64,000 bases of DNA, from assembly GCA_012646185.1 (NCBI GenBank), contig GCA_012646185.1_4706.1. The stretch is one strand, 5' to 3'. Of the stretch, positions 6,982 to 41,380 are shown piece by piece. How positions within the stretch are numbered: position 1 is the first letter of the stretch; each line of letters starts with the position of its first letter. The stretch is from a phage. Made by a program: the position numbers and the translations under genes. Under the pieces are notes generated by a model. The model was not told the DNA's origin. It saw nothing but the letters and a program-made list of their open reading frames with translations, and ran no database searches.

Positions 6982-7692
6982 TCACCCCCTCAGAATCGCT
7001 TCTGTTTCGCTGATCGTATCCGCAGGATAAACCAAACTACTATCGATTGCGTTATTCACGTAACCACCCATTAAGTTGGTGATGGTGTTTGTACCGCTAT
7101 CGATAATGTTTCGTAATCCGATGTCGATGGCTTTTAAGGTGCTGCGTTCCTCATCCGAAAGCAAACGCCATGCTCGACGACGATCGTTGGGGTCACGTGT
7201 GGTGATAGACGCCAGAACAGAATAGATGCTGCTATCCGCATTCAATTTAACACCAGCCAATTTCGCTGACGTGTAGAGCAGCTGATATTTTTCTTTTTCG
7301 GTGTACCACCACGGCACTTTACCGAGCGTATAGATCTCGTTATACATCAGCCATGGGAAAGAGTTTCGCATCACGACATCGGTTGACACCAACACCGTGT
7401 CGCCGGGAAGAAACACAAATTCATAAAACGGCTGACCATCCATGGTAATCTCACGGATGTCAGATGGGTCGATATGGAGCTGGGTCAATGCGTGGCTGAC
7501 ACCATACTGACCATCAGGAAGAATAATCGGGCAGCACGCACAAACCCGGTTCTCACTCCCGATGATAGATAAACCCAATCCCTCGTAACGGACGGGTGTC
7601 AGAATCGAACACCCGCCACGAGTAACAACAGATTTATCTTCTTGTATGTCCCAGTCCGCAAGCACCGCAGCACCGTTGCGGACAAGCGCCAT
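6982..7692 (-). CDS. hypothetical protein
   Basis: 236-aa ORF abutting neighbours in an operon-like run. Confidence 0.55.
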   Translation of the reverse strand: MALVRNGAAVLADWDIQEDKSVVTRGGCSILTPVRYEGLGLSIIGSENRVCACCPIILPDGQYGVSHALTQLHIDPSDIREITMDGQPFYEFVFLPGDTVLVSTDVVMRNSFPWLMYNEIYTLGKVPWWYTEKEKYQLLYTSAKLAGVKLNADSSIYSVLASITTRDPNDRRRAWRLLSDEERSTLKAIDIGLRNIIDSGTNTITNLMGGYVNNAIDSSLVYPADTISETEAILRG

Positions 7693-9524: not shown

Positions 9525-9550
9525 GAGCAGGGGCATGAAGCCCCCTGCTC
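9525..9550 (-). terminator. intrinsic terminator hairpin
   Basis: 9-bp stem gagcagggg/cccctgctc immediately after the stop of the 9551..13897 gene, followed by a U-rich tract on the minus strand. Confidence 0.5.
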
Positions 9551-12500
9551 TTATTTGGCGTCGTTAAAATAAATATCAACAGCTCGTTCCGTTGCGTAGA
9601 GGAGACCAAGATTCACAGTCCCAACCACTTCCGGTGAACCGATGATACGGTTAGCGATACTGGTGCCACTGAAGATAGCATCAAGGGTGTGCCCGTCTTC
9701 GGTTTTGTTCACACCATGACCCACGGAAGAGACAACGGATTTCGCTTGAGCTGCGAAGGTACCTTTATCACCCATCCCCGCACCAAGGTCGTAACGCATG
9801 AAAATACGGATAGCGATCTGGTTCTCGCCTAACGGATTACCGTCTATTCTCACGTTACTGTTATTGATACGCCCCGTAGTTGCTTCGTTGAGTTTCAGTT
9901 CCTTAACGCGTTTAGCTCGTGCTTTATCTGCCTCACCGACGAGCGCTGCCATGGTTTCACTCATATCCTCAATCTGAGCGCGGTACAGTACATCGATCTG
10001 TACAACTTCACCATGAACGTCAGCACGTGGGTTATACTGACTCATACGACGTAATGCTTCAACGGCTTCCTGACTCTCATCACTCAGATCGGTCGCAATC
10101 GGTTCTTCCAGTGTTGCAAGGATCGTTCGTGGTTCAACATGATCGCCGATTTTCACGAGACCACGAATGTTGAGATGGGCGTCAACGATGAGCGTACGGC
10201 TCTTAATCGATGGTGTTACGAGACGATCAGCAAGATTGTCGAAGATATACGAACTGTCCTCGTGAGTCTCTGGAATATCCAGAATACCGACAAGAGACAG
10301 AACACCTGCGCGCCAAACAACCTGACCTGGGTTCCACCAATCGCGTTTAAAATAAAGACGATGGAAAACCACCACATCCTGATCCTTAACGCGATCCCCG
10401 ACTTTATAATCGGTAATGAGATCGTGAGGATAATACTTACCTGGTCCTTTCCCGATTATCGTACCGAGCTGGAAAACCTCTTCCCCTAACTCTGGATCGT
10501 CGTATTGTATCGTAAGCGCAGTTTTGGTGACCTTCTTAACAACACCATCGCCTTGGGCAGCTGCTGCAAAGAGCTTACCAACACGATGCGCGATGACAGT
10601 CTCACCGCCTGTGCGCCATGGTTGTACATCGTAACCTTCAGCAGCAATCATGCGGTTGTGTTGGATCCCGACGAAGACCAGACGTTTTCCATCATCACGG
10701 TCTACAGCCGGAACAGCTAACGCTGACGTACTCATTACCGATGAGATGCCGTCTGTCTTTTCATCGAATGGTCGTGTTTCACCATACACCGACACGATAT
10801 TAGCATTAGGTGCAAGGTAAGCAGAGATACCCACATCCCCACTATCTTTCGTACCCTCTGACACAATACCAACATCGGACTTGTCGTATTCACGATCGCG
10901 TGCGCGTCGAAGCGATGTCTTTGAACGACCCCCGATACCGGTCATCGTTGCTTCTTCACCCTGCTTGATATCCAGCATCGGGTTGGTTTCATCGATCACG
11001 ATGGACGCGCTGTCGTCGAGAATTTGGTTCCAGACGCTTACCGGACTGATTGAGATTTTCTGACGATTTCCTTGACTGCTGTTCTCATTCTGACGAATAG
11101 CGCCAACCAGATCCTTATACACCAATTCAGCGAACTTATCGTACGTTTTAAAACGTTGATAGTTCACATCGTTGGTGTTAGGTGCCCAGTCATCCAGAAG
11201 CAGTTCAACAGCACGCAGTAACAACATGGCGAAATCGGTAGGTTCTCCCATGTTCTGTAGCAACGTACGGCTTACCGGATCAACGAAAAGACGCTCCATG
11301 AGTTCAAGTTCGCGTAAATGACGAACCTTAAGTCCGGCACCATCGACAACGTTAAAATAGATATCTCGATTGTCGAAAGCACCGCGAGCGTAACCGATGT
11401 AGTTACGGTACTCGTTAAATCCGCCCAGCAACAACGTCGTCATGCGATCGTCTTTACTGAAGATCAAACTTTCGTCATCAAAGCTCACCGCGAATTCATC
11501 GGGCGCTAGACCCATACGAGAACCGCGAGGTACCGTACGATAGTTCGCTTTAAGATGTTCTAATAACGGGGTAAGTCCACCCAGATAACTTAGAACAACA
11601 CCAACCGGAATACGTACACCCATGAATTCAAGATCGGCGGCTTCGATCGGCATCTTAGCCGCATTGATACCGAAGAAATCGGGGAACGTCCCTACAGGTG
11701 TTGGTGTTTGTCCTGACTGACAGATATAGAGCTGATTGCGTTTATCGATTGCTAAGAATTCACCCAGCGTGTTACGCGCAAACGTCAGGAGCCCTTCGGC
11801 TAACTGTTCGTTGAACCGATCTTCCCCGATGAACTCCGGCAATGTCTTTGTATCAAGACGTATATCCCAATCAGCAAATTGGATTTGGGTATAGTTGCGT
11901 GCAAGCACAGCGAAGTAATACGGGACTTTGACGGCCGGATCAAAGACGTTACCACGTTTTAACGTGGTTAAGGGCGAAGACTTATCGTAATACATCGCTG
12001 TAAGTTGGCGTGTTAGCCAACGACCGGCGTTATTAACGACACGCTCTGAACGTTTAACAAACACCTTACCGTAGGCGGTACTCAACGCAACTTCGGATGA
12101 TGATACCTTTCTAATAGGTTTATCAACACGTTGTTTACGCATCCGGTATTTGATGCCGTTAACAACATAAATGCCGTCCTTACGAACCTTCGGCAACATC
12201 ACCGGGAACGTGGTTGGGACACCGCCTACAGGAGCCAGTTTAATCGTGATGACTTGATAATCCCCCATCACGTCAACAACATCTTCAACTTTATATCCCG
12301 TGACAGGGTAACCTGCCTGTTGTACGGCAACAACAGCGGCTGCGATGTCCTTTTGCATCACGTGTTCAACGTAATGTTTATCCCACACCGCAAGCGTCGA
12401 TTTACATAGGCTCTTATCGACGATAACATCCGCTTCCGGCATAACCTTTGCTGGCGCTAATTTCGCGGCTTTTGGTTTAACTTCAACATACTCAGCAAGT

Positions 12501-13897
12501 GTTAATCCAGAACCGTCGGGTGCTTCGATTTCGTGAATGGCGTCAGCATTACGCATCGCTGCTTTATATTGGACGCCGCTTAACTGACCCGCATCAGCCA
12601 GATCGCTCGCGCGTACCAACACCGCATCCGATAACGACTGAATATATTCACCGTGTGTTTTCGGTAGCGTTGCTGCGTCAAAGACATCAACCTTTTCTTC
12701 TTCGGTATCGTCGGTAACGACTTCGAAGAGATCGTCGGTAATGTCCTGATCTTCATCGGGTTGGAAATCTGGTTGTACTTCTACCCCGGGTACTTCACGG
12801 ACATCTTCGAACGAGCGTTCTACAATGGCGTTCCACGCATCAGCGTCATCGTCTTCATCCGACCCGCCGACCAACTCCGCTTCTAACTCATCGGGATCAA
12901 GAACGGTAGCCAGATCCTCACCGTTAGGAAGCACGACGTCGCGATCATCATACTCCGCATCCGGGCTGTCTGCAAGAATATCTCGCTCTTGACGAAGAAC
13001 CTGTTCCTCTTCTTGTTTCTGTTCTTCTTCATTCGCACTCTGCGACCACAAACGTGTTACCGCCATCATCCAACGACGCTGGAAGGTTTCAAGTGTCGTT
13101 TTATCGAGTTCTTCCCCTTCCTTAACAAGCCCGGTACGCCATTCCTCCAGCAGGCCCAGATTCAGCGTAAAGAAGTACACACCGTCCGTAAATACAACGT
13201 TAAGCTTATCCAGCGTGGCTCTGTCTAACGAAGCCATCGTACTGTTCTCACGATCGGTTCCCAACCAGCGGAAGAAGTCAAAGAACGACAGCTCCTCCGG
13301 CGTAGCGAAATTCATGAGGTTGTTACGGGTCGGTGCCTGTTGCGTGGTACGCATCAACGAAATCTTCGGCAATGTTGACGGTATACGGAACAACAGAAAG
13401 TGTTGACGATCGCTTTGCTGTGCGATTTCGTTGGCTTTCGACCAAATTGTTTTACGTACGTTGAACCATTCATCATACCAACGGGTGAGCGTTGGACGAT
13501 AAATGTACATGTGGTTAAGATGCGCGTAGTTAGCCACGATCTGAGCGTTGATGTTTTTCTCCACCGTACTTAGATCAGTGACCAAACGAAAACGACGATG
13601 CGATGCACGGTAATCCAGTTTCGCACGCGGTAGCTGGAATCGCTGATCCCGTCGAGGTGCGCCTTGCTTGGTTGCAAGGTCATCCGCGAACGATATCCAA
13701 AGCTGGGCACTTTCTTTGCTCAGCATGTATTCGTTTTCTGGAGGACCTATCAATGATGGATCCGTTGCGGTGTAATGATAGACAGCATAACGCGGCAGCT
13801 GCAATAGCTGCACTAAACGTAATCTCGGTGACAATAGCTCTTGGTAGCGTCTGACACCGAACTGTCGGTAGTAATCAAGGTATTTAAGTTTTGCCAT
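9551..13897 (-). CDS. multisubunit RNA polymerase beta-prime-like subunit, C-terminal part
   Basis: 1448-aa ORF with ATG and GGAG RBS; contains a bridge-helix-like NNAGRWLTRQL (compare E. coli ANSGYLTRRL) and a possible trigger-loop-like TMTGIGG; follows the DFDGD exon. Highly diverged. Confidence 0.5.
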   Translation of the reverse strand: MAKLKYLDYYRQFGVRRYQELLSPRLRLVQLLQLPRYAVYHYTATDPSLIGPPENEYMLSKESAQLWISFADDLATKQGAPRRDQRFQLPRAKLDYRASHRRFRLVTDLSTVEKNINAQIVANYAHLNHMYIYRPTLTRWYDEWFNVRKTIWSKANEIAQQSDRQHFLLFRIPSTLPKISLMRTTQQAPTRNNLMNFATPEELSFFDFFRWLGTDRENSTMASLDRATLDKLNVVFTDGVYFFTLNLGLLEEWRTGLVKEGEELDKTTLETFQRRWMMAVTRLWSQSANEEEQKQEEEQVLRQERDILADSPDAEYDDRDVVLPNGEDLATVLDPDELEAELVGGSDEDDDADAWNAIVERSFEDVREVPGVEVQPDFQPDEDQDITDDLFEVVTDDTEEEKVDVFDAATLPKTHGEYIQSLSDAVLVRASDLADAGQLSGVQYKAAMRNADAIHEIEAPDGSGLTLAEYVEVKPKAAKLAPAKVMPEADVIVDKSLCKSTLAVWDKHYVEHVMQKDIAAAVVAVQQAGYPVTGYKVEDVVDVMGDYQVITIKLAPVGGVPTTFPVMLPKVRKDGIYVVNGIKYRMRKQRVDKPIRKVSSSEVALSTAYGKVFVKRSERVVNNAGRWLTRQLTAMYYDKSSPLTTLKRGNVFDPAVKVPYYFAVLARNYTQIQFADWDIRLDTKTLPEFIGEDRFNEQLAEGLLTFARNTLGEFLAIDKRNQLYICQSGQTPTPVGTFPDFFGINAAKMPIEAADLEFMGVRIPVGVVLSYLGGLTPLLEHLKANYRTVPRGSRMGLAPDEFAVSFDDESLIFSKDDRMTTLLLGGFNEYRNYIGYARGAFDNRDIYFNVVDGAGLKVRHLRELELMERLFVDPVSRTLLQNMGEPTDFAMLLLRAVELLLDDWAPNTNDVNYQRFKTYDKFAELVYKDLVGAIRQNENSSQGNRQKISISPVSVWNQILDDSASIVIDETNPMLDIKQGEEATMTGIGGRSKTSLRRARDREYDKSDVGIVSEGTKDSGDVGISAYLAPNANIVSVYGETRPFDEKTDGISSVMSTSALAVPAVDRDDGKRLVFVGIQHNRMIAAEGYDVQPWRTGGETVIAHRVGKLFAAAAQGDGVVKKVTKTALTIQYDDPELGEEVFQLGTIIGKGPGKYYPHDLITDYKVGDRVKDQDVVVFHRLYFKRDWWNPGQVVWRAGVLSLVGILDIPETHEDSSYIFDNLADRLVTPSIKSRTLIVDAHLNIRGLVKIGDHVEPRTILATLEEPIATDLSDESQEAVEALRRMSQYNPRADVHGEVVQIDVLYRAQIEDMSETMAALVGEADKARAKRVKELKLNEATTGRINNSNVRIDGNPLGENQIAIRIFMRYDLGAGMGDKGTFAAQAKSVVSSVGHGVNKTEDGHTLDAIFSGTSIANRIIGSPEVVGTVNLGLLYATERAVDIYFNDAK

Positions 13898-13900
13898 GGG

Positions 13901-14101
13901 TTAGGCTCCACGAGGTCCCGTTAAGTTGCGTAACAGGAACGCAACTGTATCGTAACCAATATCAATGTTGAATTTATTTTTACCGCTTACCCAGAAAGCA
14001 CGCTTCTTGTGTGAGTTGGTAATTTCGTCAATAGCTTCCATGGAATAAAGAACGTTAACCGAGACCGTATCACCGTCGAACCTTGTCTTCGCCTCAGGTC
14101 G
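13901..14101 (-). CDS. RNA polymerase beta-prime-like N-terminal subunit, exon 2 (catalytic DFDGD-type motif)
   Basis: Open frame encodes RPEAKTRFDGDTVSVNVLYSMEAIDEI...NIDIGYDTVAFLL, matching the beta-prime NADFDGDQMAVHVPLSLEA...QDVVLGLYY region; bounded upstream by in-frame UAG inside the intron core; stop UAA lies 2 codons before the ATG of the next gene. 5' boundary approximate. Confidence 0.6.
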   Translation of the reverse strand, partial: RPEAKTRFDGDTVSVNVLYSMEAIDEITNSHKKRAFWVSGKNKFNIDIGYDTVAFLLRNLTGPRGA

Positions 14102-16060
14102 CTACGCTGAGACCGCCTGCATGGATACGTACATCACAGGCTGCTTGCACTTTCATGCAAGAGGAGACTATATCAAACCGGCAGCGCAACCTGCTACGGT
14201 AACCTACACTTCGAAGACGCTCGTCCTCTACAGGGTGGTAAATCCCTTAGTCGTTGAACCTGCGTTGTTTCACATTCTTGTTTGTAAGAATGTCGTATTA
14301 CTACGCAACAACCAGGCTGCTGATTGCCCATTGTTTCGCACCTTAGCACCGCTTACGCGGCTTTTCTTTCAGCCTAAGCCTCTTACGGAGGTAGTGCATC
14401 TCAACTGTTGTTTCTGCCTTTCGGCACCTCATGGGTCGTTGAGCTTTAGGGGTTCCCAGCATTTCGTAGGTTTTTCAAGCACTCCCTTTCGGGAATACCG
14501 GACTCATTATTAGCTTATTTATTCAAGTATCTGAAATCCCACTTATCTTTACGTCGTTTATCGCACTTGATGTCAGGATGATTAACACGATGCCTAATAG
14601 TTGTTGCCGATAGCTGGCTGAGATTCTCAGCAGATCGTGCGCCAAGAACAACGAGTTTTGTGTCGTCTGGACGCGTAACTTCTACTGCCCGATAATGCTT
14701 ACGTAACACATCACGCCAATATTCACGACGTTCTGGTTCAGCATACTCAAGCATGTAACCGTTAACATCTACTAAACCGTAGCTTTCGTTTAATCGAGAG
14801 GTAGCGGCTGGTTTACTAATACCGATTGCTTTAGCCGCATCGACCACGGTTTTATACGGGGTCTCATTACCGTCTCTATCTACAACCACAATGAAATCTG
14901 GACGTGAATCGAGTAGCTGCTGTCTGCGTTCGACGGCTTGTTGATGAAGCACCATGTTAACGTGTTCGAACCCGTAACCTTCTGGACCGTGCCACCCTGG
15001 ATTGTTATTCGCTCGATAAAGTACCGTCGCAGATTTCACTCCAGTCTGACGTGACGCCTCGTTTGCACTATGAACAACCGTGGTAGAGCCGTCAGGGTGA
15101 TATATCCGTATCTGGTTCATTATACCGGAACCAATGAAGTTACCATCAGCTGATTTAATATCCGGCCATGGTTGAGGATCATCTTTGAATTTAACCACCC
15201 AGCGGTTATTAAACAGTTTGACTTTTCGAACATGTTTGCCCATTGTCGTATCCGTAACACCTGCGACTACTGATGCCTGTGTGATACTCAGGTACTCAGT
15301 AACGGTATCGTTCCATGTATCCCAAAGCAGAACCGGTTTATTGTCGTCGCGTAAACCGTATTCGATGGCGTGTAGAACGTTACGACTTCTGGTCGCCCAT
15401 TCAAGATTATCGAGAGAGTAATTCCATTTGTCGGCATCGAGATGATTAACGTCCAACTTATCGACATTAGCCGGATATTCCCGCCACGCCAACATCAAGC
15501 AGCGATGCAGAACCTTAGTTCTCGTTACATCCCGACAATCATGACGTAGACTAATGAATACGTAATTATCCTTTTTCGGATACGATCTACATTCCTGACC
15601 GTCTTTGCGGCGAATAACTCGTCCTTTCTCATTTATCAGATAACGGGTGTGTCCAGGAATGACACGATAACCAGGGTACTTAGCGATTTCGTAAGCAGGC
15701 TCGAACCGATAGGATAAATTATCAACATCCCAGTTAGATTCGTCACCATCAACAAACATCGCTTTGACGTACTTCTGTGTTTCAATATCAACCAGGATGT
15801 TTTTGTGTGCGATACAAATCAATGCTGGGATATTGAATTCACGACCGGCTAAGATAACCATGTCGCCATTTCTCGGTATCACGACGTGGGTATCACGATA
15901 CCGTAAATTTCCATAGCCGTCTATTTCAATCCAGCTTAGAAACGGAATGGATATAAACTCTTTTTCAGATACTCGCCATTTAAACATCTTAATACCTATT
16001 TAATACTAAACATCATATTAATAGGTTTAAAAGTTAAAAATGACAGAAAATGGCTAAATT
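14102..16060 (-). mobile_element. group I self-splicing intron carrying an HNH homing endonuclease gene
   Basis: Canonical P, Q, R, S core elements in correct order on the minus strand: P ~14366-14381 (GGCUGAAA), Q ~14312-14326 (AAUCAGCAGCC), R ~14244-14259 (GUUCAACGACUAAGGG), S ~14163-14176 (UUGAUAUAGUC); P4 and P7 pairings are complementary. 5' splice site not resolved. Confidence 0.7.
14515..15987 (-). CDS. HNH homing endonuclease (intron-encoded)
   Basis: 490-aa ORF with HNH-type motif DVNHLDADKWNYSLDNLEWATRSRNVLHA, a NUMOD4-like N-terminal segment and three helix-turn-helix-like repeats in the C-terminal half. Confidence 0.8.
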   Translation of the reverse strand: MFKWRVSEKEFISIPFLSWIEIDGYGNLRYRDTHVVIPRNGDMVILAGREFNIPALICIAHKNILVDIETQKYVKAMFVDGDESNWDVDNLSYRFEPAYEIAKYPGYRVIPGHTRYLINEKGRVIRRKDGQECRSYPKKDNYVFISLRHDCRDVTRTKVLHRCLMLAWREYPANVDKLDVNHLDADKWNYSLDNLEWATRSRNVLHAIEYGLRDDNKPVLLWDTWNDTVTEYLSITQASVVAGVTDTTMGKHVRKVKLFNNRWVVKFKDDPQPWPDIKSADGNFIGSGIMNQIRIYHPDGSTTVVHSANEASRQTGVKSATVLYRANNNPGWHGPEGYGFEHVNMVLHQQAVERRQQLLDSRPDFIVVVDRDGNETPYKTVVDAAKAIGISKPAATSRLNESYGLVDVNGYMLEYAEPERREYWRDVLRKHYRAVEVTRPDDTKLVVLGARSAENLSQLSATTIRHRVNHPDIKCDKRRKDKWDFRYLNK

Positions 16061-17529
16061 GAATCACCGCCTAAACCGGCGAGGTACGGGGCAGGAACAA
16101 TAGTAGTTTCTACGAATGATGCATTAGGTAACCAGTCGGGGTATTCCCATGCGATAAATCGTTCATCCGTTATTGGTTCCCAGTTACTATCCAGTTCGGT
16201 TTTCGGTTTTGCCGCAACGGTTGTACGTGCGTAACAGGTTAACGGGATAACGGATTGCATACCGGATACCGGATAACGTGTTACCATCGCAGCCAGGTTA
16301 TTCCAGTACTTATAACCAGCGATATAAATAAGCTCGGTGTAAGTAATGGGGTGAACATCCGCACCAGGCTTATTCAACATCTCCGGAGGTAATTCACTCA
16401 TACCACGGAATAACCGAAACGAATCATTGTTCACATAGACGAGGCAAAGATATCGTCCATTGACCATGATAGGCTCGTTACGCACGCCAGGATCGCTTAA
16501 GGTGTTCAGTAAACGTTCTATTCCGTCCCAGGTTGTAAAGTCATCGATGGTGTCTGGATCAAGCGTGACACGTTCACGTTCCATCGTTTCGGTATCAATA
16601 AGTTCAACTTCTGTAACGTCACGAACAAATATTTCCTGCAAAATACCGGTACGTAACGCATGTTGCGTTACTGGGAGAGCAGCTTTACTCATCTGGTATA
16701 ACCCTAACTGAACTGCGGTACAGGAAGGCTGGTTAGGCGACCCTAATACCTCCGTTGTGGGGTTAATTGCCGAAATAACGTTACGGGTTGAGTTCCAAAC
16801 GCGACGTGAACCAAACTTCCCTTGGAAGATCCCTTTCTTACCTTGGAACATATCCAACAACAAAGCGTAGATATCGTTAAACGTTCTCTGTAAGCTCCAG
16901 CGTTGGCCGTCGTAAACGGGATCGGAATAATCTTTTAATCCATCAGGGACGGTGTTAGAAATTGCAAGGAAACGACGATACAACTCCGTGATTTCTTGCT
17001 CGCTTTCATACCCACCTTCTTTTACTTCTATTTCACGTAAACCCGCAGGTAAAACCAGTAGATGACGAGTCATCGCTTTGAACATGTTCTCTTCGACGAC
17101 TTTAATTCGTAGCTCTCGTTGAGCTGAACCCGTTGAAACGAACTTAATATCAGCGACGTGTTGTGCAAAGAACCCGTACCCTGTCTGTCCTGTTAACGCA
17201 TCAGACGCAACGAAGTCGCGTTGTTCAGGATCCCAACGCGCGTACGCCTTCCCCGACATGATATCGCCATAGAGGTGTTTTAGTCGAATGAGACGATCGT
17301 AGATGACAGGATGTAGGATTTCAACCTTGCATTCAATCACCGCAAATCGACGGTCTCGATCTTCACTACCCGCACTACCAAAGATGGTGTATGAATAGAA
17401 ACCGTCATCGTGGAAATTACCGGTGCTTGGATCACGAATGCTCATGCTCGTGATCTTGGGGAGAAAACGTAACTGCTGTTTATCGAGGTGTAAAATACTA
17501 ATATTAAACGGCTCTCTGACTTTAGCCAT
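16054..17529 (-). CDS. RNA polymerase beta-prime-like N-terminal subunit, exon 1
   Basis: Start ATG at 17529 with AGAGGAG RBS (ORF-track start 17571 is an upstream extension). N-terminus FNISILHL...DGFYSYTIFGS aligns with beta-prime FDAIKIAL...DGLFCARIFGP; KGIFQGKFGSRRVWNSTRNVISAINP aligns with the [26 protein letters not shown] region. Frame stops at 16054 inside the presumed intron, so the true 3' end of exon 1 is uncertain. Confidence 0.6.
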   Translation of the reverse strand: MAKVREPFNISILHLDKQQLRFLPKITSMSIRDPSTGNFHDDGFYSYTIFGSAGSEDRDRRFAVIECKVEILHPVIYDRLIRLKHLYGDIMSGKAYARWDPEQRDFVASDALTGQTGYGFFAQHVADIKFVSTGSAQRELRIKVVEENMFKAMTRHLLVLPAGLREIEVKEGGYESEQEITELYRRFLAISNTVPDGLKDYSDPVYDGQRWSLQRTFNDIYALLLDMFQGKKGIFQGKFGSRRVWNSTRNVISAINPTTEVLGSPNQPSCTAVQLGLYQMSKAALPVTQHALRTGILQEIFVRDVTEVELIDTETMERERVTLDPDTIDDFTTWDGIERLLNTLSDPGVRNEPIMVNGRYLCLVYVNNDSFRLFRGMSELPPEMLNKPGADVHPITYTELIYIAGYKYWNNLAAMVTRYPVSGMQSVIPLTCYARTTVAAKPKTELDSNWEPITDERFIAWEYPDWLPNASFVETTIVPAPYLAGLGGDSI

Positions 17530-17774
17530 GGAGACACTCCTCTTTACCACCACCGGCTGCGGCGGTATCATCTGAACACACGAGAGACGTAATGGGTGAT
17601 GGCGTCACCCATCGCTTCCTTGCTTGAGGCGAGGAAGTTACTAGGTTACGTACCTGCCTGATTTTATCAGGTGGGCGATGTGTGAAGTTATGCTTCAACA
17701 TTATCAATGCCGAAGGTAAACTTCGTGCATCACGTTCCAACGTAACATGGGAACGTATCGAACTGGAGGTATAC

Positions 17775-20700
17775 ATGGTAGATAAAACCCGTGTTGAGGG
17801 TGATGATAATTGGGACAACTGGGATGAAGACTTCTCCCTGGATCTCGATTTTAACGAACCCAAAGACGATCGTAAACCGATAACACGCTTTGCGATAGGA
17901 GCGGTTAAAGGTGCTGCTGAAGATCTTACTTCCTACGAAAGAATGAGGGAGATCGCCAGAAACGCATTGCCTAAGGGCTACAGCGACGGTATGGATCTTA
18001 TCGATTCCGCCGTCGGATCCACGAAGGAACTATACAATGAAGCCGTTCGTGACGTTCTTCCTAAGGTCCAAAGCTCAAAACGGTTAGCCGCACAACTGAC
18101 CAAGAAATACCGTGCGAGCATGCCCGATTTCTCGAAGAAAATTCTTGAGCAATGGGAGCAAGAAGCCAAGGAAGAAGACGAACGTAAAAAAGCTGAAGAA
18201 ACCCTTCGTCAACGCATGGCGAGCGCAGGGGACGATGAGATCGCCCGCAAGGTTGCCGAGGCATTAGGCGAATCAGCAAACCAAAGCGCGGATCAGTTCG
18301 CTGAACAGCAAGCGAAAGAGAGTATCCGTGACGATATCGCTGACAAACGGTACGCTGTAACCAACAAACAAATGAGTGCGATGCAAGAAGGCGTCGCCAA
18401 GATGGTTGGTTTCAACAATGAATTCGCTGCGCGCTACATGCGTAAAAGCCTGGAACTGAAATATCGTTCCTTAGCGATTCAGCGTGCAAGTTTCGACCAG
18501 CATAAAAAGTTAGCCGAAGTCTATATCGGTTTATTACAAAACATCCAGAAGAATACGGCTTTACCTGATGCGGCTAAAGCGAAGATGTCGGAAGAATTCC
18601 GTCGTAGTGCATACCAACGTTTCTTTGGTAATGCGTTAGATGCGATGGGTTCTTTCGAGAACCGTTTCTTTGCCGATGTTAAGAAGAACCTCGCCACCAA
18701 CGCATTAGGTGCTTTAAAAGGCGTCGTGTCTGGCGCAAACGATGCGTTATACGGTTTAAACGAAGCACGTGACTCGATGTCCATGATGGACGGGATGGGG
18801 TCAGAAGGCGATATTAAGGAAATGCAAGGAAAGATGTTGGGTCAACTTATCGGCTCAACTGTCGTACCATGGATGGCTGATAAAGGCAGGATGGCGTTAC
18901 GCGATTTAGCAAAACGTCACCCCAATGCTAAATTCGCTAGCGCGTTAAAAGCCGTGGATCAAGGTGGTGAGGCTGCCGCTTACACGACGCGTAATCTCGG
19001 TAAACTGCTCCAGGAAGATATTCGTAAAAACGAATTCAATCTTAGCGATCCGTTTTACAAGCAATTGTTACGCGGTGCAGGGCGTTGGGCTTTCAACATG
19101 GATAGCGGACGTAACTTCCGCGTGATGAACGACACCGCTGAAACACTGGCGGAGCAAACGTCTTTCGACGGTTTAACCTACCGCAGCATCAACGAAGTTA
19201 TTCCAGGCTTTCTTGCACGCATTCTGAAAAGCAGTGAAGGTATCCGCACCGGAAACAGCGATCCTGATTACGAGGTCTATGACGGCATCAGCGGGCAATT
19301 CGTGTCTCAGCGCACGCGTGAACAAAGCGTCAATGACACGCTGTTTAACAAACGTACATTTGGTTATTACGCCAGCCGTTTCAACGAGGTTATCTCGGTC
19401 ATCGATCCCGATAAACAATTATCGGAAAAAGCCAGGAAGGCACTGGCTAAACAGTTGGCACGAGATAGCGACGCGAACATCGCATTCGACCCGGCTCGTT
19501 TTACGGATGAAAGCAACTTCGATCGTAGCATTGACCGTGACGCTATTAAGGAACTTTCCACGTACTTTCGTGACCGTTACGGTATTCGTGATGATGTCAA
19601 CGATAAGGGCGAACGTCATCAGGTCATTGGAAACCGCGGGCAATATTACACGGAACGTAACCGAGCCGACCTTCGCTACGGTAATTTGAAATCGTTACAA
19701 CCGGATATCCAGCGTAACCTTAACCTACTGAAACGTACTGGTGACGTCCAATATCTGGAACGTATTGGTATTGTAACGAGAAATAGCGACGGAAGTTACT
19801 CGGTTAATCACGATAGGTATTTCTCTGAAATCGATCGGTACATCGACCGACCGGAGTACGCTGAACGTAGTGATGTTAATACGCGATTAACCGCTCAGGA
19901 AACAAGAGCGCTGGCGTTGGGTTATCGTGACGCAAAACCATCAGTTGATGACGTCCAAAATGCGGGTCTGCCGAACATCGATCGTAAGGCTGTTGGAACA
20001 GTAACCGTTGATGAAAACATCGGCTACGATAAATGGTGGAACGACACAGGTGTTATCACCACATCGCTTGAAGAACAGAATCGAGCATGGCAAGAGCTTT
20101 ATCTCGAAGCGTTATCTGAAGCATCCGAACAACGTGTTGAGATGCTTGCGTTGCTGAAAGCCATTTCTGAGAAAGACTGGTCTAATAACGTTTCGCTGGA
20201 TGGTGAAGACGTGCCTGAAGGCGCAGCACCTATTTCATTTATTGATCGTGCCAAACAAAAACTTGGCGGACGCAACCTCTTTAAAGGTGGCCGTAATCTC
20301 CTCTGGAAAGGAATTAAAAATACCGCACGTTTAGGTGTTAAAGGCGCGCGCTGGGGTGCAGAACGCACGTTGGGTAGTTTGGTAAATTCCGGCCGACGCA
20401 TTATCAACTTCAACCGCTTCGTGTTCGGTGCGTTATCCAAGGTCGATCAGGTTCCGTTTGACATTTACGTTAAAGGGGAATCCCAACCACGCATACTGGC
20501 TGCCAAACTTCGTCAGGGGTTATACTTCGACGAGGCGACAGGAAAAGCCGTCAAACGGATGAAGGATATCAAAGGCCCACTCGTTGATGCAGATGGAAAC
20601 ATCGTAATCAGCAACGAGGATATCGAGAAAGGGTTGGTCACTCGCGCCGGTCGTGCCTTTGAGAATTCAGGACTTAAAGCATGGGCGCGTGAAGGTCTTA

Positions 20701-23700
20701 ATGGAATCACGACGGTATTAAGTCTCCCACGGATGTTAAAACGCGGTGCGGTCGAGATCTACAAGCAGCTTGACAAAACACCCGACGTTTACGTCAAGGG
20801 AGAATCAACGCCTCGTCTGTTGTCCATGGTGTTAGCAGCGGGTGGGTATTTCCGTCGCTCGGATGGACAAGTCATCAAAAATCTTGAAGACATCGATGGT
20901 GATGTTGTTGATGCACAAGGTAACGTCGTACTTACGCTTGCCGACATGCAGAAAGGACTTGTCGATAAATACGGTAAAGCGATTCGTCGCTTAAAAGAAA
21001 AGCTCATCAACTTCGGTGTGAAAGCTTTCACGTTACCGTTAACGCTGCTACGTAAGACAAAGGACATCCTTAAAGCCCTTCCAGGTAAAACCGTTAACGG
21101 TCTACGACGGATGGGATTAAATGTCCAATCACCCGACGCATTACTGGTGGGAACAACGTCGAGCATGGTAGATCGGCTCGATGCGATTTACCAGCTTCTT
21201 GACCAGCGTATGCCGGGTGGTGATAAGGATTATCGCGATTGGAATGGGGATGGCGTTCGAGAAGGATCGTTGGAAGACCTGAAACGTAAGCGTGAAGCCA
21301 AGGAAAACGGTAAGGATGACACCGGCAAAGATTCCAATAAAGGAGAAGAAAAGGAGAAGAAACGAGGATTACTCGGAAGCCTTTTCGATATGCTTGGCGA
21401 TACCGCATTAGGTAAACGACTCATGGCGAGTCCGCTTGGAAAAATTCTAGGCGGTCTTGGGGCGGTGTTAAGCGGCGGAGCATCGTTAACCGGATTGTTG
21501 GGCAAGGGTCTCATTAGTGGAACCGGCGCGCTAGTCAAGGGAGGACTAAGTGCGGCAGGATGGTTAGGACGTGGTGCGTTAATGGCGGGTGGGGCTGCAT
21601 TGAACGCCGTTGGTGGGTTATCGGGATTAGGTGCATTCCTCATCTCACCTGTTGGGCTTGCTATCGCTGGCGGTGCATTGGCTGCTTATGCTGGATGGAA
21701 GATCTATCAGCATTTCGCCGAGAAGCCTGACCCGATGCAGAAGCTCCGTCTTATTGCATACGGTGCAAAAGGGGACGATAAAGACTTCAATAAGAAGCTG
21801 CTTGCGACAGAAACATACCTCACCGACCATGTGGTTATGACCGGGGATACCATCGGATTCGATCCGAAAGCCGACTCGGAAAAGATTCTCGAAATCTGGG
21901 AATTGTCCCTGGAAGATTCCGACCGAATGAACGAATGGAAACGCTGGTATCTGCATCGTTTTATTCCTGTTTTCGCTCGTGCGTACAAACTCTGGAAAGA
22001 GCATATGCCGGACGAGAAGAAATACATGGAAATGGATAAATATCCGAACGGTGAGAACAAAGTGAAATGGTCGGAAGCGTTTATCTGGCCTTCCGATAGT
22101 CCTGACGGTCCGTATTACGTCGAAGCTAACCCGTTGGGTTCTTCTGGTGCGACGCGTTATATTGCTGGTCAAGACGTCAAAACCTTGATGCTGAAACAAC
22201 TCGAAGCCATCAAGAAAGAGTACCAGAATCAGATCAAACAATACTCTCATGATGAGGCTATTGCTGATTGGTCACGGATGTCTGACACACAGCGTAAATC
22301 CGTTGCGCCTAACGCATTACGTGGTCAGAAAGCGTCGTTACGTTTTAACGATAAACGTTACAACAGCGCTGGTGCTAAAGGACGACAGAAACTGGATGCA
22401 ACCGCGGTTATTGAAAGCGTAGACCGCCGTGGTAGAAAATGGGTTGCCGGTGGATACATCGATGAACTCACCAGTCTCCGTGTTCGCGCGTACGGTATCA
22501 AGGTTCCGTTGTTAAGCCAGATAAAAGTGCTGATGGAACTTGAAGACGCTGTAGAACCTGGCGTTGTCGCTGAAGGTAAAGGTGTTAAATACGGTGGCGA
22601 TCTTGTCGCGCTCTACAAGAAATTCGCGACGAAGTTCGGAAGAGACGTTAACAGCAAGCATGATCAGGATATCTGGTTTGCTTGGATGAACAACCGTTTC
22701 CTGCCCGTCTTTTTAACCTATTACCAACAAGTTAGCGAAATGGGCGGTCAAGGACTTCTGTCCGACGTGGTACAGAACCTGAAAGACAGCCAACGCTGGG
22801 AAATCGGTGAAGCACTTGTCGCAACACAATACCGTGATGAGAAAGGTACACTGCAGCCTGTATGGTCCTGGAATAGTTGTGGTTTCTCCGGTACTGAAGC
22901 TAACACCACCAGCAGTTCAACAAAGAGCCAACTCGATCTGTTAAAAGAATATGCGGATAAAGAGAAGGTTCGTGAGAAGAACGCGGAAGCATCGCAAGAG
23001 GATACCGATAAATTATCGAAGATCCAAGAGCTGATGATGAAGCAGGCTGGGTACGAGAAGAAGGACGGTGTCTGGCAGAAGAAATCTCGCATTACCGGCG
23101 GGATGAGTAACTCCGAAGCGAATTACAACCCCAATAGGAATAAGGTCGGTGAAAGCAGCTTTACGGCTTCGGCTACTTCCAATGCGGGATTGGGATCAAC
23201 CGGCGATCTTACTGGATTGCCTAACATGGGCTTACAGAAACCGGCAATGGGACCAGGTCCTGAAGCTGGACGTCGTGCGCTTGTTAAATCCGCTGTAAAA
23301 CGCGGCATTACCGATCCAATGGAAATGGCGATGTTCCTTGCGAACATCGAACATGAATCGGGGAACTACACTCACGTACGTGAGGGGAACTACAAGACGC
23401 CAGAGCGTCTTAAACAGGTCTTCCCTTACAAATTCCGTGATGTGCAGGATGCCGCACAGACGATCAGCATGGGGCCGGAAGCGGTATTCGAACGTGTGTA
23501 TGGTAATCGTAAAGATCTCGGAAACACACAGAAAGGAGACGGGGCGAAGTATTTAGGACGCGGCTTCATTCAGGTTACCGGTAAAGCTAACTACGCTCGT
23601 CTGTCTAAGACCTTGAATAAGGATCTTGTCAGCGATCCGACCTACCTGGAAACGCCGGAAGGTGCGGCGGAAGGTAGTGTTGCATGGTGGCTCAACCGAG

Positions 23701-24440
23701 GTAACGTATTACGCGATCCCGCAAAACGGGGTGACGTACGCCAAGTTCGTTATCTGGTTAACGGTGGGTTTAACGGATTACGTGATGTTGAACAACGTTC
23801 AGCTTATTGGATTCAGGCGGCTAAGAATGGCACCCTGAAGAAAATGATGGACGAGTTATCAGGGTCAACATCAGACGATCAAGCTGAAGGACCAACCACT
23901 GCCGAACAGGTGAAGAACGAAGCAGCACAAGAGGCAAACGGAACACCTGCTGTAAGCAACGATCCGCAAGCCCCAGCATCTTCTACTACCCCTGAAGCTA
24001 AACCGTCTGCGGCTGCCGGGACGGCCCCAGCACCTGGAGAAGCATCACCAACGCCCGGAAGTTTCGAAACAGCAAAAGCCGCGGCAGGACAACCGACATC
24101 AACTCCAGCACCTAGCGATTTGCCGTCAAACCCGGGTGCAAATCGAGGGATATCGGTTCCGAATACACCTGCACAGGTTGCGCAGTCTGCGACACAAACG
24201 TCGGCTGCAAGTGAGAACTTCTACGGTAGCGCAGGTGAAATTCTCCGACAGCAGCTGACCACGCAGCAGAACATCGAGAAGAACACCGGTAGAACGAATG
24301 AACTTATTTCGGAATTAATCCAAGCCGTTAAGGGTTCTTCTATCGGTAAGGGTTCTGCAAGTCCTTCTCAACAACAGGCGATGTCGCTACCTAATCGTCC
24401 GCAAGGAATCTCTCCAACACGGACAAGGTACGCACAGTAG
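17775..24440 (+). CDS. giant virion protein (~2221 aa) with embedded lysozyme-like peptidoglycan hydrolase domain
   Basis: Start ATG at 17775 with GGAGG RBS (track start 17682 is GTG). Glycine-rich hydrophobic segment; GH19-like motifs FLANIEHESG and YLGRGFIQVTGKANY; Pro/Ala/Ser/Thr-rich C-terminus. Confidence 0.7.
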   Translation: MVDKTRVEGDDNWDNWDEDFSLDLDFNEPKDDRKPITRFAIGAVKGAAEDLTSYERMREIARNALPKGYSDGMDLIDSAVGSTKELYNEAVRDVLPKVQSSKRLAAQLTKKYRASMPDFSKKILEQWEQEAKEEDERKKAEETLRQRMASAGDDEIARKVAEALGESANQSADQFAEQQAKESIRDDIADKRYAVTNKQMSAMQEGVAKMVGFNNEFAARYMRKSLELKYRSLAIQRASFDQHKKLAEVYIGLLQNIQKNTALPDAAKAKMSEEFRRSAYQRFFGNALDAMGSFENRFFADVKKNLATNALGALKGVVSGANDALYGLNEARDSMSMMDGMGSEGDIKEMQGKMLGQLIGSTVVPWMADKGRMALRDLAKRHPNAKFASALKAVDQGGEAAAYTTRNLGKLLQEDIRKNEFNLSDPFYKQLLRGAGRWAFNMDSGRNFRVMNDTAETLAEQTSFDGLTYRSINEVIPGFLARILKSSEGIRTGNSDPDYEVYDGISGQFVSQRTREQSVNDTLFNKRTFGYYASRFNEVISVIDPDKQLSEKARKALAKQLARDSDANIAFDPARFTDESNFDRSIDRDAIKELSTYFRDRYGIRDDVNDKGERHQVIGNRGQYYTERNRADLRYGNLKSLQPDIQRNLNLLKRTGDVQYLERIGIVTRNSDGSYSVNHDRYFSEIDRYIDRPEYAERSDVNTRLTAQETRALALGYRDAKPSVDDVQNAGLPNIDRKAVGTVTVDENIGYDKWWNDTGVITTSLEEQNRAWQELYLEALSEASEQRVEMLALLKAISEKDWSNNVSLDGEDVPEGAAPISFIDRAKQKLGGRNLFKGGRNLLWKGIKNTARLGVKGARWGAERTLGSLVNSGRRIINFNRFVFGALSKVDQVPFDIYVKGESQPRILAAKLRQGLYFDEATGKAVKRMKDIKGPLVDADGNIVISNEDIEKGLVTRAGRAFENSGLKAWAREGLNGITTVLSLPRMLKRGAVEIYKQLDKTPDVYVKGESTPRLLSMVLAAGGYFRRSDGQVIKNLEDIDGDVVDAQGNVVLTLADMQKGLVDKYGKAIRRLKEKLINFGVKAFTLPLTLLRKTKDILKALPGKTVNGLRRMGLNVQSPDALLVGTTSSMVDRLDAIYQLLDQRMPGGDKDYRDWNGDGVREGSLEDLKRKREAKENGKDDTGKDSNKGEEKEKKRGLLGSLFDMLGDTALGKRLMASPLGKILGGLGAVLSGGASLTGLLGKGLISGTGALVKGGLSAAGWLGRGALMAGGAALNAVGGLSGLGAFLISPVGLAIAGGALAAYAGWKIYQHFAEKPDPMQKLRLIAYGAKGDDKDFNKKLLATETYLTDHVVMTGDTIGFDPKADSEKILEIWELSLEDSDRMNEWKRWYLHRFIPVFARAYKLWKEHMPDEKKYMEMDKYPNGENKVKWSEAFIWPSDSPDGPYYVEANPLGSSGATRYIAGQDVKTLMLKQLEAIKKEYQNQIKQYSHDEAIADWSRMSDTQRKSVAPNALRGQKASLRFNDKRYNSAGAKGRQKLDATAVIESVDRRGRKWVAGGYIDELTSLRVRAYGIKVPLLSQIKVLMELEDAVEPGVVAEGKGVKYGGDLVALYKKFATKFGRDVNSKHDQDIWFAWMNNRFLPVFLTYYQQVSEMGGQGLLSDVVQNLKDSQRWEIGEALVATQYRDEKGTLQPVWSWNSCGFSGTEANTTSSSTKSQLDLLKEYADKEKVREKNAEASQEDTDKLSKIQELMMKQAGYEKKDGVWQKKSRITGGMSNSEANYNPNRNKVGESSFTASATSNAGLGSTGDLTGLPNMGLQKPAMGPGPEAGRRALVKSAVKRGITDPMEMAMFLANIEHESGNYTHVREGNYKTPERLKQVFPYKFRDVQDAAQTISMGPEAVFERVYGNRKDLGNTQKGDGAKYLGRGFIQVTGKANYARLSKTLNKDLVSDPTYLETPEGAAEGSVAWWLNRGNVLRDPAKRGDVRQVRYLVNGGFNGLRDVEQRSAYWIQAAKNGTLKKMMDELSGSTSDDQAEGPTTAEQVKNEAAQEANGTPAVSNDPQAPASSTTPEAKPSAAAGTAPAPGEASPTPGSFETAKAAAGQPTSTPAPSDLPSNPGANRGISVPNTPAQVAQSATQTSAASENFYGSAGEILRQQLTTQQNIEKNTGRTNELISELIQAVKGSSIGKGSASPSQQQAMSLPNRPQGISPTRTRYAQ

Positions 24441-29626: not shown

Positions 29627-30317
29627 AATAACTGAACCATTTTATTCCAAAGAACCGCATGAACATCACAGGTGCGTTAGAAAGTTCGATTGCTTCGTAA
29701 AGTTTGTCATAAGCCAGATCGGAATCAGGGATGGTTTCACTGATTCGTCTGGCTACAACCAATACGTTACAAATCGGATTGTCTTCTAACAGCATCTGAT
29801 TGGGGAGGTGCCAGCGTTTGAAATCGTAAAAGAACATCGCATTATACGTCTTACGGATTTCTGACGGATGCAGTGTGGCCGGATGACGGTAAATAACCTC
29901 AACGCTATCTTGCGCGCCGAGGTATTGCTGGATGCCTTCTTTTAACGCAATTGCAGCATCTCCCACAAATTCAAACGGGTACGTATTCACATGAACCGAA
30001 AAATCCGGTGCAGCAATCCCTGTCAAGCGGTCTTTCATGTAGTCCGCTACCACGTAACATAATCGCCACATCAACTCCGTCGGAATGCATTTATCGAGAA
30101 TGGTTTCATCGATATTTGCCAACGCACCCTTAAACTCTTCGTAAGTGTAAGTAACACCCGCCTGCTTCTCCGGCTCCAGGTTATAGGGTCGGTAATGCCA
30201 TTTCTTCCCCCACTTTCTGATAGCCTCCGGATCCAACGTTGTTGCTACCGCCATTTCGATATCAAGCAGCGCCTCGAGTTCTACGTACACCGTCACTAAC
30301 GCCGCATTTCCAGTCAT
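29529..30317 (-). CDS. hypothetical protein
   Basis: 262-aa ORF; its 3' end overlaps the convergent 28997..29626 gene by 98 nt. Confidence 0.5.
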   Translation of the reverse strand: MTGNAALVTVYVELEALLDIEMAVATTLDPEAIRKWGKKWHYRPYNLEPEKQAGVTYTYEEFKGALANIDETILDKCIPTELMWRLCYVVADYMKDRLTGIAAPDFSVHVNTYPFEFVGDAAIALKEGIQQYLGAQDSVEVIYRHPATLHPSEIRKTYNAMFFYDFKRWHLPNQMLLEDNPICNVLVVARRISETIPDSDLAYDKLYEAIELSNAPVMFMRFFGIKWFSYFIPPRVTPPKTDDLQPSSEIPPHEPTPSVEPF

Positions 30318-31021
30318 CGTTGCTCTCCAGCTTCACCGGTTAACATCTGCATATCGGGAGACGTTTTAATTTTCTTCTCGTACTCTTTTGTTTGTTTGAA
30401 TACCAACTCACCGATTTCTTCCAATTCTTCAACGGTGACGGTATGCAAATAGAGCAACGGAATAATCCAGGTATTCGCACGAAGCATATCCCGAATATCA
30501 TCAACGGTGGGTAACTCCGTAAAGAACTGTTCGTCTACCGCAAATAAATCCCGTGCGATACCATCCACCAGTTTATGATCGCTTTCATGGATCCATGCAA
30601 AACTTCCAGCAAGATGATCGATAAGCATATCGATGTCATCGACCGTTGAGAACACTGTACGCCGAACGTGCGTTGTGAGGTCCATCGTAAAACCCATTAA
30701 CGAAGGGGTTTCCTCAGAACGGAGTTCACGCCAAAGACGGATCATGTTTTCAGGGATAAACAAATCATGGATGAACGTCACACTGAATTTCGTAACCCAA
30801 TCACGAATTGTTGCCCCTTTGGAATATTGTTGCGGTGGGGAATACAAATACACCCAGCGTTTCGTGTACGCGATAACTTCCTTTCGCATCGCCGCATCTA
30901 AAACAAGCACGTAACGATCGGAAGCAAGCTCTTCTAATAAAAGCTCGAACGCAGTATCACTCTCTGGGGAGAACGATCGTTTTATTTCTGCGATACGTCG
31001 TGATAACCGACCACGTAACAT
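30314..31021 (-). CDS. hypothetical protein
   Basis: 235-aa ORF, 4-nt overlap with the downstream gene. Confidence 0.55.
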   Translation of the reverse strand: MLRGRLSRRIAEIKRSFSPESDTAFELLLEELASDRYVLVLDAAMRKEVIAYTKRWVYLYSPPQQYSKGATIRDWVTKFSVTFIHDLFIPENMIRLWRELRSEETPSLMGFTMDLTTHVRRTVFSTVDDIDMLIDHLAGSFAWIHESDHKLVDGIARDLFAVDEQFFTELPTVDDIRDMLRANTWIIPLLYLHTVTVEELEEIGELVFKQTKEYEKKIKTSPDMQMLTGEAGEQR

Positions 31022-31023
31022 AA

Positions 31024-31698
31024 TTAGCCCTCATCAAGGTTATTCTGGAGATGCATTGCGGTGAGGATAACGCCAACCGCCGAAACCGATTTTGCCTTGC
31101 TGTCTTCAGGGAGCTGCTCCAAGCTTACGGTACCTGTTTCTAACAGCATGCGGTTCATCGCGTTGAACTTCTTATCATCACCACCACGAGCCTGCATCAG
31201 CTCTCGGTTCACGTTCGGCATCGACCGTCCTAACGTCGCTTGCATTTCCGGCTGGCTCCAAGTGGAACCTTTACTATCACCCGTCGGCTGATTGGTGAGC
31301 TGGTCCTTGGTGTTGTTGTTTTTCGGAATCGATATTTTAGCACTCAACGTTTCGGCTTGTCGGCGGTTTGGAATCAGGTACAATCTGGTTGGGCGGTCAC
31401 GAAGCACCAATTGCCCTGTTTTCTGGTCGGTGAGATAAATGCGCTGGAAGAAGGGGAAACCGTATTTCTTACCAACTTCCAACGCACGTTTTATCGTCAC
31501 CTCGTTTTTGTTCATGTTGGGTACCCAGATGGGTAGAATCTCTTTCTTATCCCGACATAAACGCATATAGGCATCAAACGTCTCATCATCGATTTCAGCA
31601 AAACGTTTTTTGTAAATAGCGTAAGTCGGGCTCGATTCACCCACCAGGTCTTTGATATACCCAAGAATGAATTTTTCTGCTGCAGCGCGGTTGGACAT
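31024..31698 (-). CDS. hypothetical protein
   Basis: 224-aa ORF. Confidence 0.55.
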   Translation of the reverse strand: MSNRAAAEKFILGYIKDLVGESSPTYAIYKKRFAEIDDETFDAYMRLCRDKKEILPIWVPNMNKNEVTIKRALEVGKKYGFPFFQRIYLTDQKTGQLVLRDRPTRLYLIPNRRQAETLSAKISIPKNNNTKDQLTNQPTGDSKGSTWSQPEMQATLGRSMPNVNRELMQARGGDDKKFNAMNRMLLETGTVSLEQLPEDSKAKSVSAVGVILTAMHLQNNLDEG

Positions 31699-39544: not shown

Positions 39545-39614
39545 TTATGCCGTCAAGCAAAAAAAAAAATGATAGTCACAGGCTCTCCAATGAAGGAGAG
39601 CCGTGACCGTCAGT

Positions 39615-40316: not shown

Positions 40317-40330
40317 CGAAAGGATCCTTC

Positions 40331-41289: not shown

Positions 41290-41350
41290 CTCCCCCTACA
41301 TACGCATCTTGAAGATCGGTTAAAAACAACAAAAGAAAAAACGATATAAA

Positions 41351-41380
41351 GCAAGGTCCTCTGATATCAGAGGACCTTGG
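41351..41380 (-). terminator. intrinsic terminator hairpin
   Basis: Palindrome caaggtcctctga tat cagaggaccttg followed by a U-rich run on the minus strand, after the 41386..42042 gene. Confidence 0.6.

Follow-up and report, generated by a model that had tools for sequence, protein, structure and literature searches.

With a probability of about 93%, we read the minus-strand interval 9551..17571 of contig GCA_012646185.1_4706.1 as the core operon of the multisubunit RNA polymerase that a Goslar-like chimallivirus packages in its virion (vRNAP), an operon encoding the N-terminal piece of the beta-prime subunit (beta-prime N) and the N-terminal piece of the beta subunit (beta N). The window, that is, the whole stretch of DNA analysed here, is 64,000 nucleotides (nt) long. 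Over the whole interval its DNA is 93% identical to that of Escherichia phage Goslar, a phiKZ-like, nucleus-forming jumbo phage (chimallivirus) whose records have the same layout, with a group I intron and a terminator annotated. The interval holds three long minus-strand open reading frames (ORFs), at 16054..17571 (505 amino acids, aa), 14515..15987 (490 aa) and 9551..13897 (1448 aa); in PHROGs, the 505-aa and 1448-aa ORFs fall into families annotated "RNA polymerase beta subunit" and the 490-aa ORF into HNH endonuclease families. An initial annotation had proposed a split, phiKZ-type multisubunit polymerase at this locus, which was borne out by beta-prime N and beta N profiles, by predicted folds and by phiKZ orthology. 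The arrangement is known already from phiKZ, SPN3US and Goslar, and the one addition made here is a corrected and precise annotation, in which the identities of both proteins, the intron, its borders and an intron-less allele are established.

The first gene of the operon begins at 17529, the right-hand coordinate given initially, and this is a true start codon: a Shine-Dalgarno sequence, AAGAGGAG, lies 7 nt upstream of the ATG, and intron-less genes start at the same codon. Exon 1 holds the beta-prime 'GKKG...R...RNVI' region, and a second frame, downstream of the intron core, reads ...RFDGDTVSVNVLYS... and ends in a TAA three bases before the ATG of the 1448-aa ORF. The FDGD of this second exon is the Mg-binding aspartate motif. 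Joined, the exons encode 548 aa, a protein of the phiKZ gp180 / Goslar gp205 family, and the splice falls inside the catalytic motif, GGD^FDGD (the caret marks the junction). The predicted RNA junction, 16063^14080, reads GGCGGUGAU-UUCGACGGU, and the predicted spliced protein reads ...YLAGLGGDFDGDTVSVNVLYSMEAIDEITNSHK across it. We place the end of exon 1 at 16063 and the start of exon 2 at 14080 because intron-less homologues read through LGGD^(F/Y)DGD; in an alignment of the junction region, Proteus phage 10, Erwinia phage RAY, PhiPA3 and fnug (phiKZ species) read L(G/A)xLG(G/A)D(F/Y)DGDT(V/M)S uninterrupted. In tblastn searches with beta-prime N, 310 jumbo-phage records were matched (phiKZ at 37% identity, E 2e-85), and the intron-less homologues span residues 7-567 as a single piece.

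The predicted splice junction is supported most strongly by a natural allele that lacks the intron. This allele is on locus L008, a contig of 39 kb from a Salmonella Enteritidis sequencing run, where the gene is uninterrupted and the 1448-aa gene starts 3 nt further on. The joined exons align with the uninterrupted gene over 1647/1647 nt without a gap and at 95.1% identity, and exactly 16062..14081 is missing from this otherwise collinear allele, which makes the two an intron-plus / intron-minus pair. In addition, compared with the predicted spliced product, the natural 548-aa protein P0154 has one residue different and the natural 548-aa protein P0156 has two.

The inserted sequence has the properties of a group I intron. 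It contains the only Rfam match in the window, to RF00028; the 5' exon ends in U (16063) and the intron in G (14081), as group I introns require; and the same insertion site is occupied in Goslar and in phiKZ. A candidate P1 of 6 bp can be drawn between 5'-GAU^UCA (16065..16060) and UGAGUC (14506..14501), in which G14503, aligned by Rfam to the guide position, could pair with U16063. Goslar shows one compensatory change in this helix, with C for U at intron position +1 and G for A opposite. Another guide sequence, GUCAU at 16043..16039, suggested by our own reading and as an RNAfold alternative, was rejected because Goslar does not conserve it.

Between the 5' splice site and the internal guide sequence / ribozyme core lies the 490-aa ORF, a predicted homing endonuclease gene. 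It matches Pfam HNH_3 above the gathering score (E 1.7e-8) and PHROG 59, 'HNH endonuclease' (E 1e-26), has weak NUMOD1 / I-HmuI-like matches in its C-terminal part, and is 32% identical to phiKZ gp179 (E 2e-31). The possibility that this ORF is a polymerase exon or other polymerase coding sequence was rejected in favour of an HNH endonuclease gene inside the intron. Also rejected was an in-frame splice of the HNH ORF to the downstream ORF at the Rfam borders (14521/14143), because a TAA stands 2 codons before the ATG at 13897, the FDGD frame has a TAG at 14104..14102, and comparison with the intron-less allele makes the insert the full 1,982 nt. Antisense to the ribozyme core, at 14121..14513 (plus strand), runs an ATG-initiated ORF of 130 aa; as the sequence there specifies a structured, non-coding RNA, this ORF has most probably arisen by chance.

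We considered whether the insert might remain unspliced, leaving either a truncated beta-prime N of 491 aa without the catalytic motif or the FDGD tail as a separate small polypeptide. The exon 1 frame does stop two codons past the junction, and both GenBank and RefSeq end Goslar gp205 at that stop. Gene splitting by insertion of a homing endonuclease is, moreover, known in other phages, as in nrdA of Aeromonas phage Aeh1, and counts in favour of such an outcome. Against it stand the presence within the insert of a group I ribozyme core that is complete and passes the Rfam gathering score; borders that obey the U and G rules; the lack of a start codon before FDGD in exon 2; perfect conservation of the exon 2 protein sequence with the intron-less allele; and the indispensability of the catalytic aspartates. 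Furthermore, phiKZ gp180 is reported with DFDGD, though there too the motif lies in exon 2. An unspliced insert is, on this evidence, very improbable, and a beta-prime N gene made of exon 1 and exon 2, as initially proposed, is upheld by the RF00028 intron, by a profile that finds only beta-prime and by Foldseek.

That profile, built from 49 beta-prime N sequences, matched only beta-prime chains in the PDB, the best being the beta-prime N fragment of the AR9 non-virion RNA polymerase (nvRNAP) at E 1.6e-17; in a second stretch of the match, DFDGD is aligned to the DYDGD of AR9. An AlphaFold (AF2) model of the intron-less beta-prime N protein, with a predicted local distance difference test score (pLDDT) of 85, led Foldseek to the same AR9 fragment as best match (E 1.9e-17), followed by cyanobacterial gamma / plastid RpoC1 and bacterial beta-prime.

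With AR9 as the closest solved structure for beta-prime N, and with both phage enzymes built of split beta and beta-prime pieces, the genes might be thought to belong to the non-virion rather than the virion enzyme. AR9 as nearest structure is, however, uninformative here, because no virion-polymerase chain was among the PDB matches listed. Orthology and synteny instead connect the interval with phiKZ gp180-gp179-gp178, whose annotation is that of structural head proteins and whose neighbours are gp177-gp175 (head protease). Goslar gp205 and gp207, both of them found in virions, also match the two window proteins at 99-100% identity, and the beta piece has a long N-terminal extension, as in the SPN3US vRNAP beta N. 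We therefore leave the non-virion assignment only a very slim chance. In phiKZ itself, gp180 carries DFDGD, is packaged, and is a vRNAP subunit co-purifying with gp178, gp80 and gp149 (PMC10612078).

The second gene of the vRNAP operon encodes beta rather than beta-prime. Its 1448-aa product is the N-terminal four-fifths of beta, through the 'GDK...' motif, plus an N-terminal extension of about 420 aa. By tblastn it aligns at full length (query residues 1-1435) with phiKZ gp178, the vRNAP beta subunit homologue (PMC11620839, PMC5105663). A 43-sequence profile searched against the PDB returned 51 matches, 48 of them distinct bacterial or plastid beta (RpoB) sequences and none of them beta-prime. 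The best match, T. thermophilus beta (E 1.2e-16), aligns in four collinear stretches, at its residues 117-139 ('NG..R'), 394-464 (GG..R / fork), 529-656 (around DDANR) and 822-872 (GDK...NKG), and residues ~560-1448 of the phage protein correspond to T. thermophilus beta ~117-880. The beta motifs themselves can be read as NGIKYRMRKQ (580-589), GIGGRS (987-992), DRDDGKR (1066-1072) and GDKGTF (1376-1381). An AF2 model of residues 420-1448 (pLDDT 91; predicted template modelling score, pTM, 0.87) gave, as its best 50 Foldseek matches in the PDB, beta chains throughout, with E values of 1e-27 to 4e-24 and template modelling (TM) scores of about 0.5.

These profile and structure comparisons of 9551..13897 place the protein in the beta (RpoB) family and overturn the initial assignment to the C-terminal half of beta-prime. 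That assignment had leaned on the sequence NNAGRWLTRQL as a bridge helix and on a possible trigger loop. The sequence is indeed present (aa 622-632), and in a predicted helix, yet it is no bridge helix: the region that holds it is the N-terminal part of the beta homology, and the beta-type 'NG..R..Q' motif (aa 580-589) precedes it by about 35 residues; nor does any beta-prime chain, with its bridge helix or trigger loop, occur among the PDB profile matches or the best 50 Foldseek matches. Likewise, the length of the protein, initially put down to large insertions, reflects instead the ~420-aa non-polymerase domain at its N-terminus. A beta-prime split across two adjacent genes, its C-terminal half swollen by large insertions, can point to two co-oriented genes 3 nt apart and to a motif that exists in a predicted helix (model residues 205-218), but with 48 beta and no beta-prime sequences among 51 profile matches, four collinear beta motifs, beta chains alone among the best 50 Foldseek matches, orthology to a phiKZ gp178 described as beta, and the motif itself inside the region aligned to the N-terminal part of beta, we find it scarcely credible.

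Relatives of this beta N piece are numerous. An exhaustive search of a library of 1.8 billion proteins found 2,214 cluster representatives related to aa 420-1448; among the best 150 of 2,214, nearly all are 1,300-1,590 aa long, with the conserved core beginning at residue ~300-560. Word-index homologue searches had returned 3 relatives each for the 1448-aa protein and for the 236-aa protein discussed below. The first ~420 residues of the 1448-aa protein have no polymerase similarity and include, at aa 281-400, a very acidic tract (44 D/E vs 7 K/R). For the SPN3US homologue, an N-terminal domain of about 400 aa has been proposed to target the enzyme into the head (PMC5105663). As a separate observation, nothing interrupts the beta gene at its conserved DD codons (DRDDGKR, 12688..12708), where PhiPA3 carries an intron with the gp210 endonuclease; gp210 of PhiPA3 cuts phiKZ gp178 at these same codons (PMC11620839).

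The virion polymerase consists of five polypeptides, namely the N, M (middle) and C pieces of beta-prime and the N and C pieces of beta (PMC5105663). In SPN3US these are gp240 (beta-prime N), gp241 (beta N), gp218 (beta C), gp42 (beta-prime M) and gp244 (beta-prime C) (PMC5105663), and in Goslar gp78, gp196, gp205, gp207 and gp210, all five of which were detected in virions by mass spectrometry (bioRxiv 10.64898/2026.04.21.720040). A search for further beta fragments within the window, as the initial annotation had advised, found beta C at 31698..31024; its ORF was the one further polymerase-annotated family in PHROGs scans of 22 other window ORFs. The 224-aa beta C protein is 100% identical to Goslar gp196, and a 10-sequence profile of it had only beta C-termini among its top PDB matches, covering E. 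coli beta ~1163-1310, a region that resumes roughly where the 1448-aa protein stops. The 236-aa protein shows 100% identity to Goslar gp210 and 28.6% to phiKZ gp176 (tblastn, E 7e-26), and SPN3US-like phages were matched as well; the gp176/gp244 family has been proposed as beta-prime C on a weak HHpred match, E 0.05 (PMC5105663). No counterpart of Goslar gp78 (phiKZ gp80; beta-prime middle) is present in the window. Four of the five vRNAP genes are thus in the window, for beta-prime N, beta N, beta C and the proposed beta-prime C, and beta-prime M is encoded elsewhere.

Several observations weigh against this account. A Pfam search of the 1448-aa ORF, the 505-aa ORF and the spliced 548-aa protein turned up no RNA polymerase domain, a silence that we attribute to divergence too great for Pfam. 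Single-sequence searches of the PDB gave, for beta-prime N, a weak phmmer match to the AR9 beta-prime N fragment (E 2e-3) and, for the 1448-aa protein, a chance match only. Because Pfam was empty and the single-sequence PDB searches were weak or empty, the subunit assignment depends on profiles and predicted structures. The beta C profile match to E. coli beta reaches E 0.018, and a 13-sequence profile of the 236-aa protein found no beta-prime match in the PDB and did not reproduce the beta-prime C label. At the RNA level, the candidate P1 is short, and energy alone does not favour it, because the 5' splice site can pair equally well or better elsewhere in the intron; splicing in this phage is inferred from sequence.

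Table 1. Features of the virion RNA polymerase operon and further proposed polymerase genes in the window (vRNAP, virion-packaged multisubunit RNA polymerase).
Feature	Position	Strand	Details
236-aa virion protein, proposed beta-prime C	6982..7692	-	Goslar gp210 / phiKZ gp176 / SPN3US gp244; PHROG 2926 'virion structural protein'
Terminator-like hairpin	9525..9550	-	9-bp stem, 7 G-C pairs, then GTTTATTT; directly after beta N gene
vRNAP beta N subunit	9551..13897	-	1448 aa; phiKZ gp178 / Goslar gp207 / SPN3US gp241; PHROG 3148 E 0
Exon 2, vRNAP beta-prime N	13901..14080	-	59 codons + TAA; begins ^UUC GAC GGU GAU = FDGD
Group I intron	14081..16062	-	1,982 nt, insert absent from L008; Rfam RF00028 core
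Intron catalytic core (P1 3' strand, P2-P9)	14144..14530	-	RF00028, 56.3 bits (gathering score 50), E 1.9e-12, model positions 1-253
Intron-borne HNH homing endonuclease, predicted	14515..15987	-	490 aa; Goslar gp206 / phiKZ gp179 class
Exon 1, vRNAP beta-prime N	16063..17529	-	489 codons, ATG 17529, ends ...GGC GGU GAU^; PHROG 2986 E 3e-161
vRNAP beta C subunit	31024..31698	-	224 aa; Goslar gp196 / SPN3US gp218 class; PHROG 3233 'RNA polymerase beta subunit' E 1e-65

Taken as an operon (Table 1), the locus would be transcribed on the minus strand, beginning upstream of 17529 and stopping at the terminator (9550..9525), with beta-prime N as its first gene and beta N as its second, starting 3 nt past the stop codon of the first. 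The hairpin is probably the end of this two-gene operon, and a terminator is annotated at the equivalent place in Goslar. A scan for promoters of the sigma-70 type returned 15 sites, which is not above the shuffle expectation of 12.5; these phages are not known to use promoters of this type. Splicing would then join ...LGGD to FDGDTVSV... and give the 548-aa protein, a piece predicted to form the double-psi beta-barrel that carries the catalytic aspartates. The active enzyme would be assembled from five polypeptides, packaged in the head and injected with the DNA, and would transcribe the early genes independently of the host's RNA polymerase. For its packaging, its injection and its role in early transcription we draw on the literature on phiKZ, SPN3US and Goslar, and by analogy with those phages both polymerase proteins are expected to be present in the virion.

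Other parts of the window are also worth recording. Divergent from the polymerase operon, 17682..24440 (plus strand) encodes a 2252-aa protein whose N-terminal part belongs to a tail-fibre family and which has an endolysin/chitinase-like domain at aa ~1866-2100 (PHROG 3201, 181); it is the counterpart of phiKZ gp181, a tail-associated endolysin. Two minus-strand ORFs, at 44358..45536 (392 aa) and 30314..31021 (235 aa), had no PHROG family at thresholds of 1e-5 and 1e-3, and their Goslar counterparts, gp009 and gp197 respectively, are hypothetical proteins. At ~39600..64000, the window continues after Goslar gp187 with gp001-gp028, across the ends of the linear Goslar record. Because it runs on in this way, the start of the deposited Goslar record is arbitrary relative to the window sequence.

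The main value of this work lies in correct annotation. Database records for this phage group label every polymerase piece "beta subunit", and the deposited beta-prime N is cut off at the intron, so that the catalytic aspartates are missing from the deposited protein. The corrected map, which places four of the five virion-polymerase genes and gives the exact borders of the splice, the product of 548 aa and the correct identity of each subunit, is needed for expression, structural work and engineering of Goslar-like phages. The biology itself repeats that of phiKZ, SPN3US and Goslar, in which a host-independent, injected, five-piece polymerase starts the infection.

Among known systems, Goslar is the closest. 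Its gp205-gp206-gp207 have the same gene order, intron insertion site and splice-site sequences, with proteins 99.4-100% identical to those of the window (gp205 is 99.8% identical over exon 1), and its intron carries 47 extra nt in the 3' part, near window position 14185/14186. In the Goslar records (NC_048170.1 / MK327938.1), gp205 ends at the intron, FDGD is missing and exon 2 is unannotated; the HNH gene is a 'hypothetical protein', and RefSeq names both polymerase genes, beta-prime N included, 'RNA polymerase beta subunit'. In phiKZ, gp180-gp179-gp178 repeat this layout of three genes, an intron falls at the same codon (...GAD^FDGD...) and the HNH gene is homologous: gp180 ends ...PLGAD^, gp179 (HNH) comes next, a 92-bit Rfam match follows, and exon 2 begins ^FDGDTVSFN. 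The beta piece, gp178, is likewise about 1450 aa long with a long N-terminal extension. phiKZ differs in protein identity, which is 34-37%, and in the length of gp179 (357 aa vs 490 aa), and some phiKZ-species isolates, fnug and PaZh_1 among them, are without the intron.

SPN3US follows the same five-polypeptide scheme, with counterparts of four of the five in the window and a beta N whose first 400 aa or so form a domain with no beta homology. By tblastn, the match in SPN3US relatives continues across the junction without a break (query 26-552, one piece), which suggests that their beta-prime N gene would be without the intron. The figure legend of the SPN3US paper marks introns and a homing nuclease in the vRNAP scheme of SPN3US, phiKZ and 201phi2-1 (PMC5105663).

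PhiPA3 gp210 offers a further parallel, in that it, too, combines a group I intron with an HNH endonuclease in a chimallivirus vRNAP gene, at invariant catalytic-centre codons. It is borne by a beta-gene intron and has been shown to be a weapon between co-infecting phages (PMC11620839). The PhiPA3 intron follows the DD of beta, whereas that of the window lies in beta-prime N at GGD^FDGD, and thus in a different gene and at a different site. By analogy, one may speculate that the intron and HNH endonuclease at GGD^FDGD serve as a weapon between co-infecting Goslar-like phages, cutting intron-less alleles such as L008, although we hold this to be a tentative and rather unlikely idea. The HNH gene has changed faster than the exons, which fits such a conflict: between the window and Goslar (L001 13015..14487), it shows blocks of 72-94% DNA identity, against 95-98% for the exons and the ribozyme core. 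Silent substitutions relative to L008 also cluster at the insertion site, with 7 within +/-15 nt vs 1.5 expected (Poisson P about 8e-4), and this is the densest 30-nt window of the gene (window 16048..16078 + 14066..14095 vs L008 7453..7482). The two alleles read GGTTTAGGCGGTGAT^TTCGACGGT with the intron (window) and GGACTTGGCGGGGAC^TTTGATGGT without it (L008). Such a cluster fits either a co-conversion tract or a cleavage-resistant intron-less allele, and it would mark one or the other if the weapon idea were true.

Finally, the split of beta-prime recalls that of cyanobacteria and plastids, in which beta-prime is divided into gamma or RpoC1 and RpoC2. There the cut falls shortly after the double-psi beta-barrel, as it does in the 548-aa protein, and gamma / RpoC1 chains are its best near-full-length structural matches, with TM scores, normalised to the target, of ~0.45. 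The coincidence of the phage split site with that between gamma and beta-prime has been noted (PMC7598289). In contrast to the cyanobacterial enzyme, the phage enzyme also has a split beta, and the rest of its beta-prime is cut again; according to the literature, it is built without homologues of alpha, omega or sigma.

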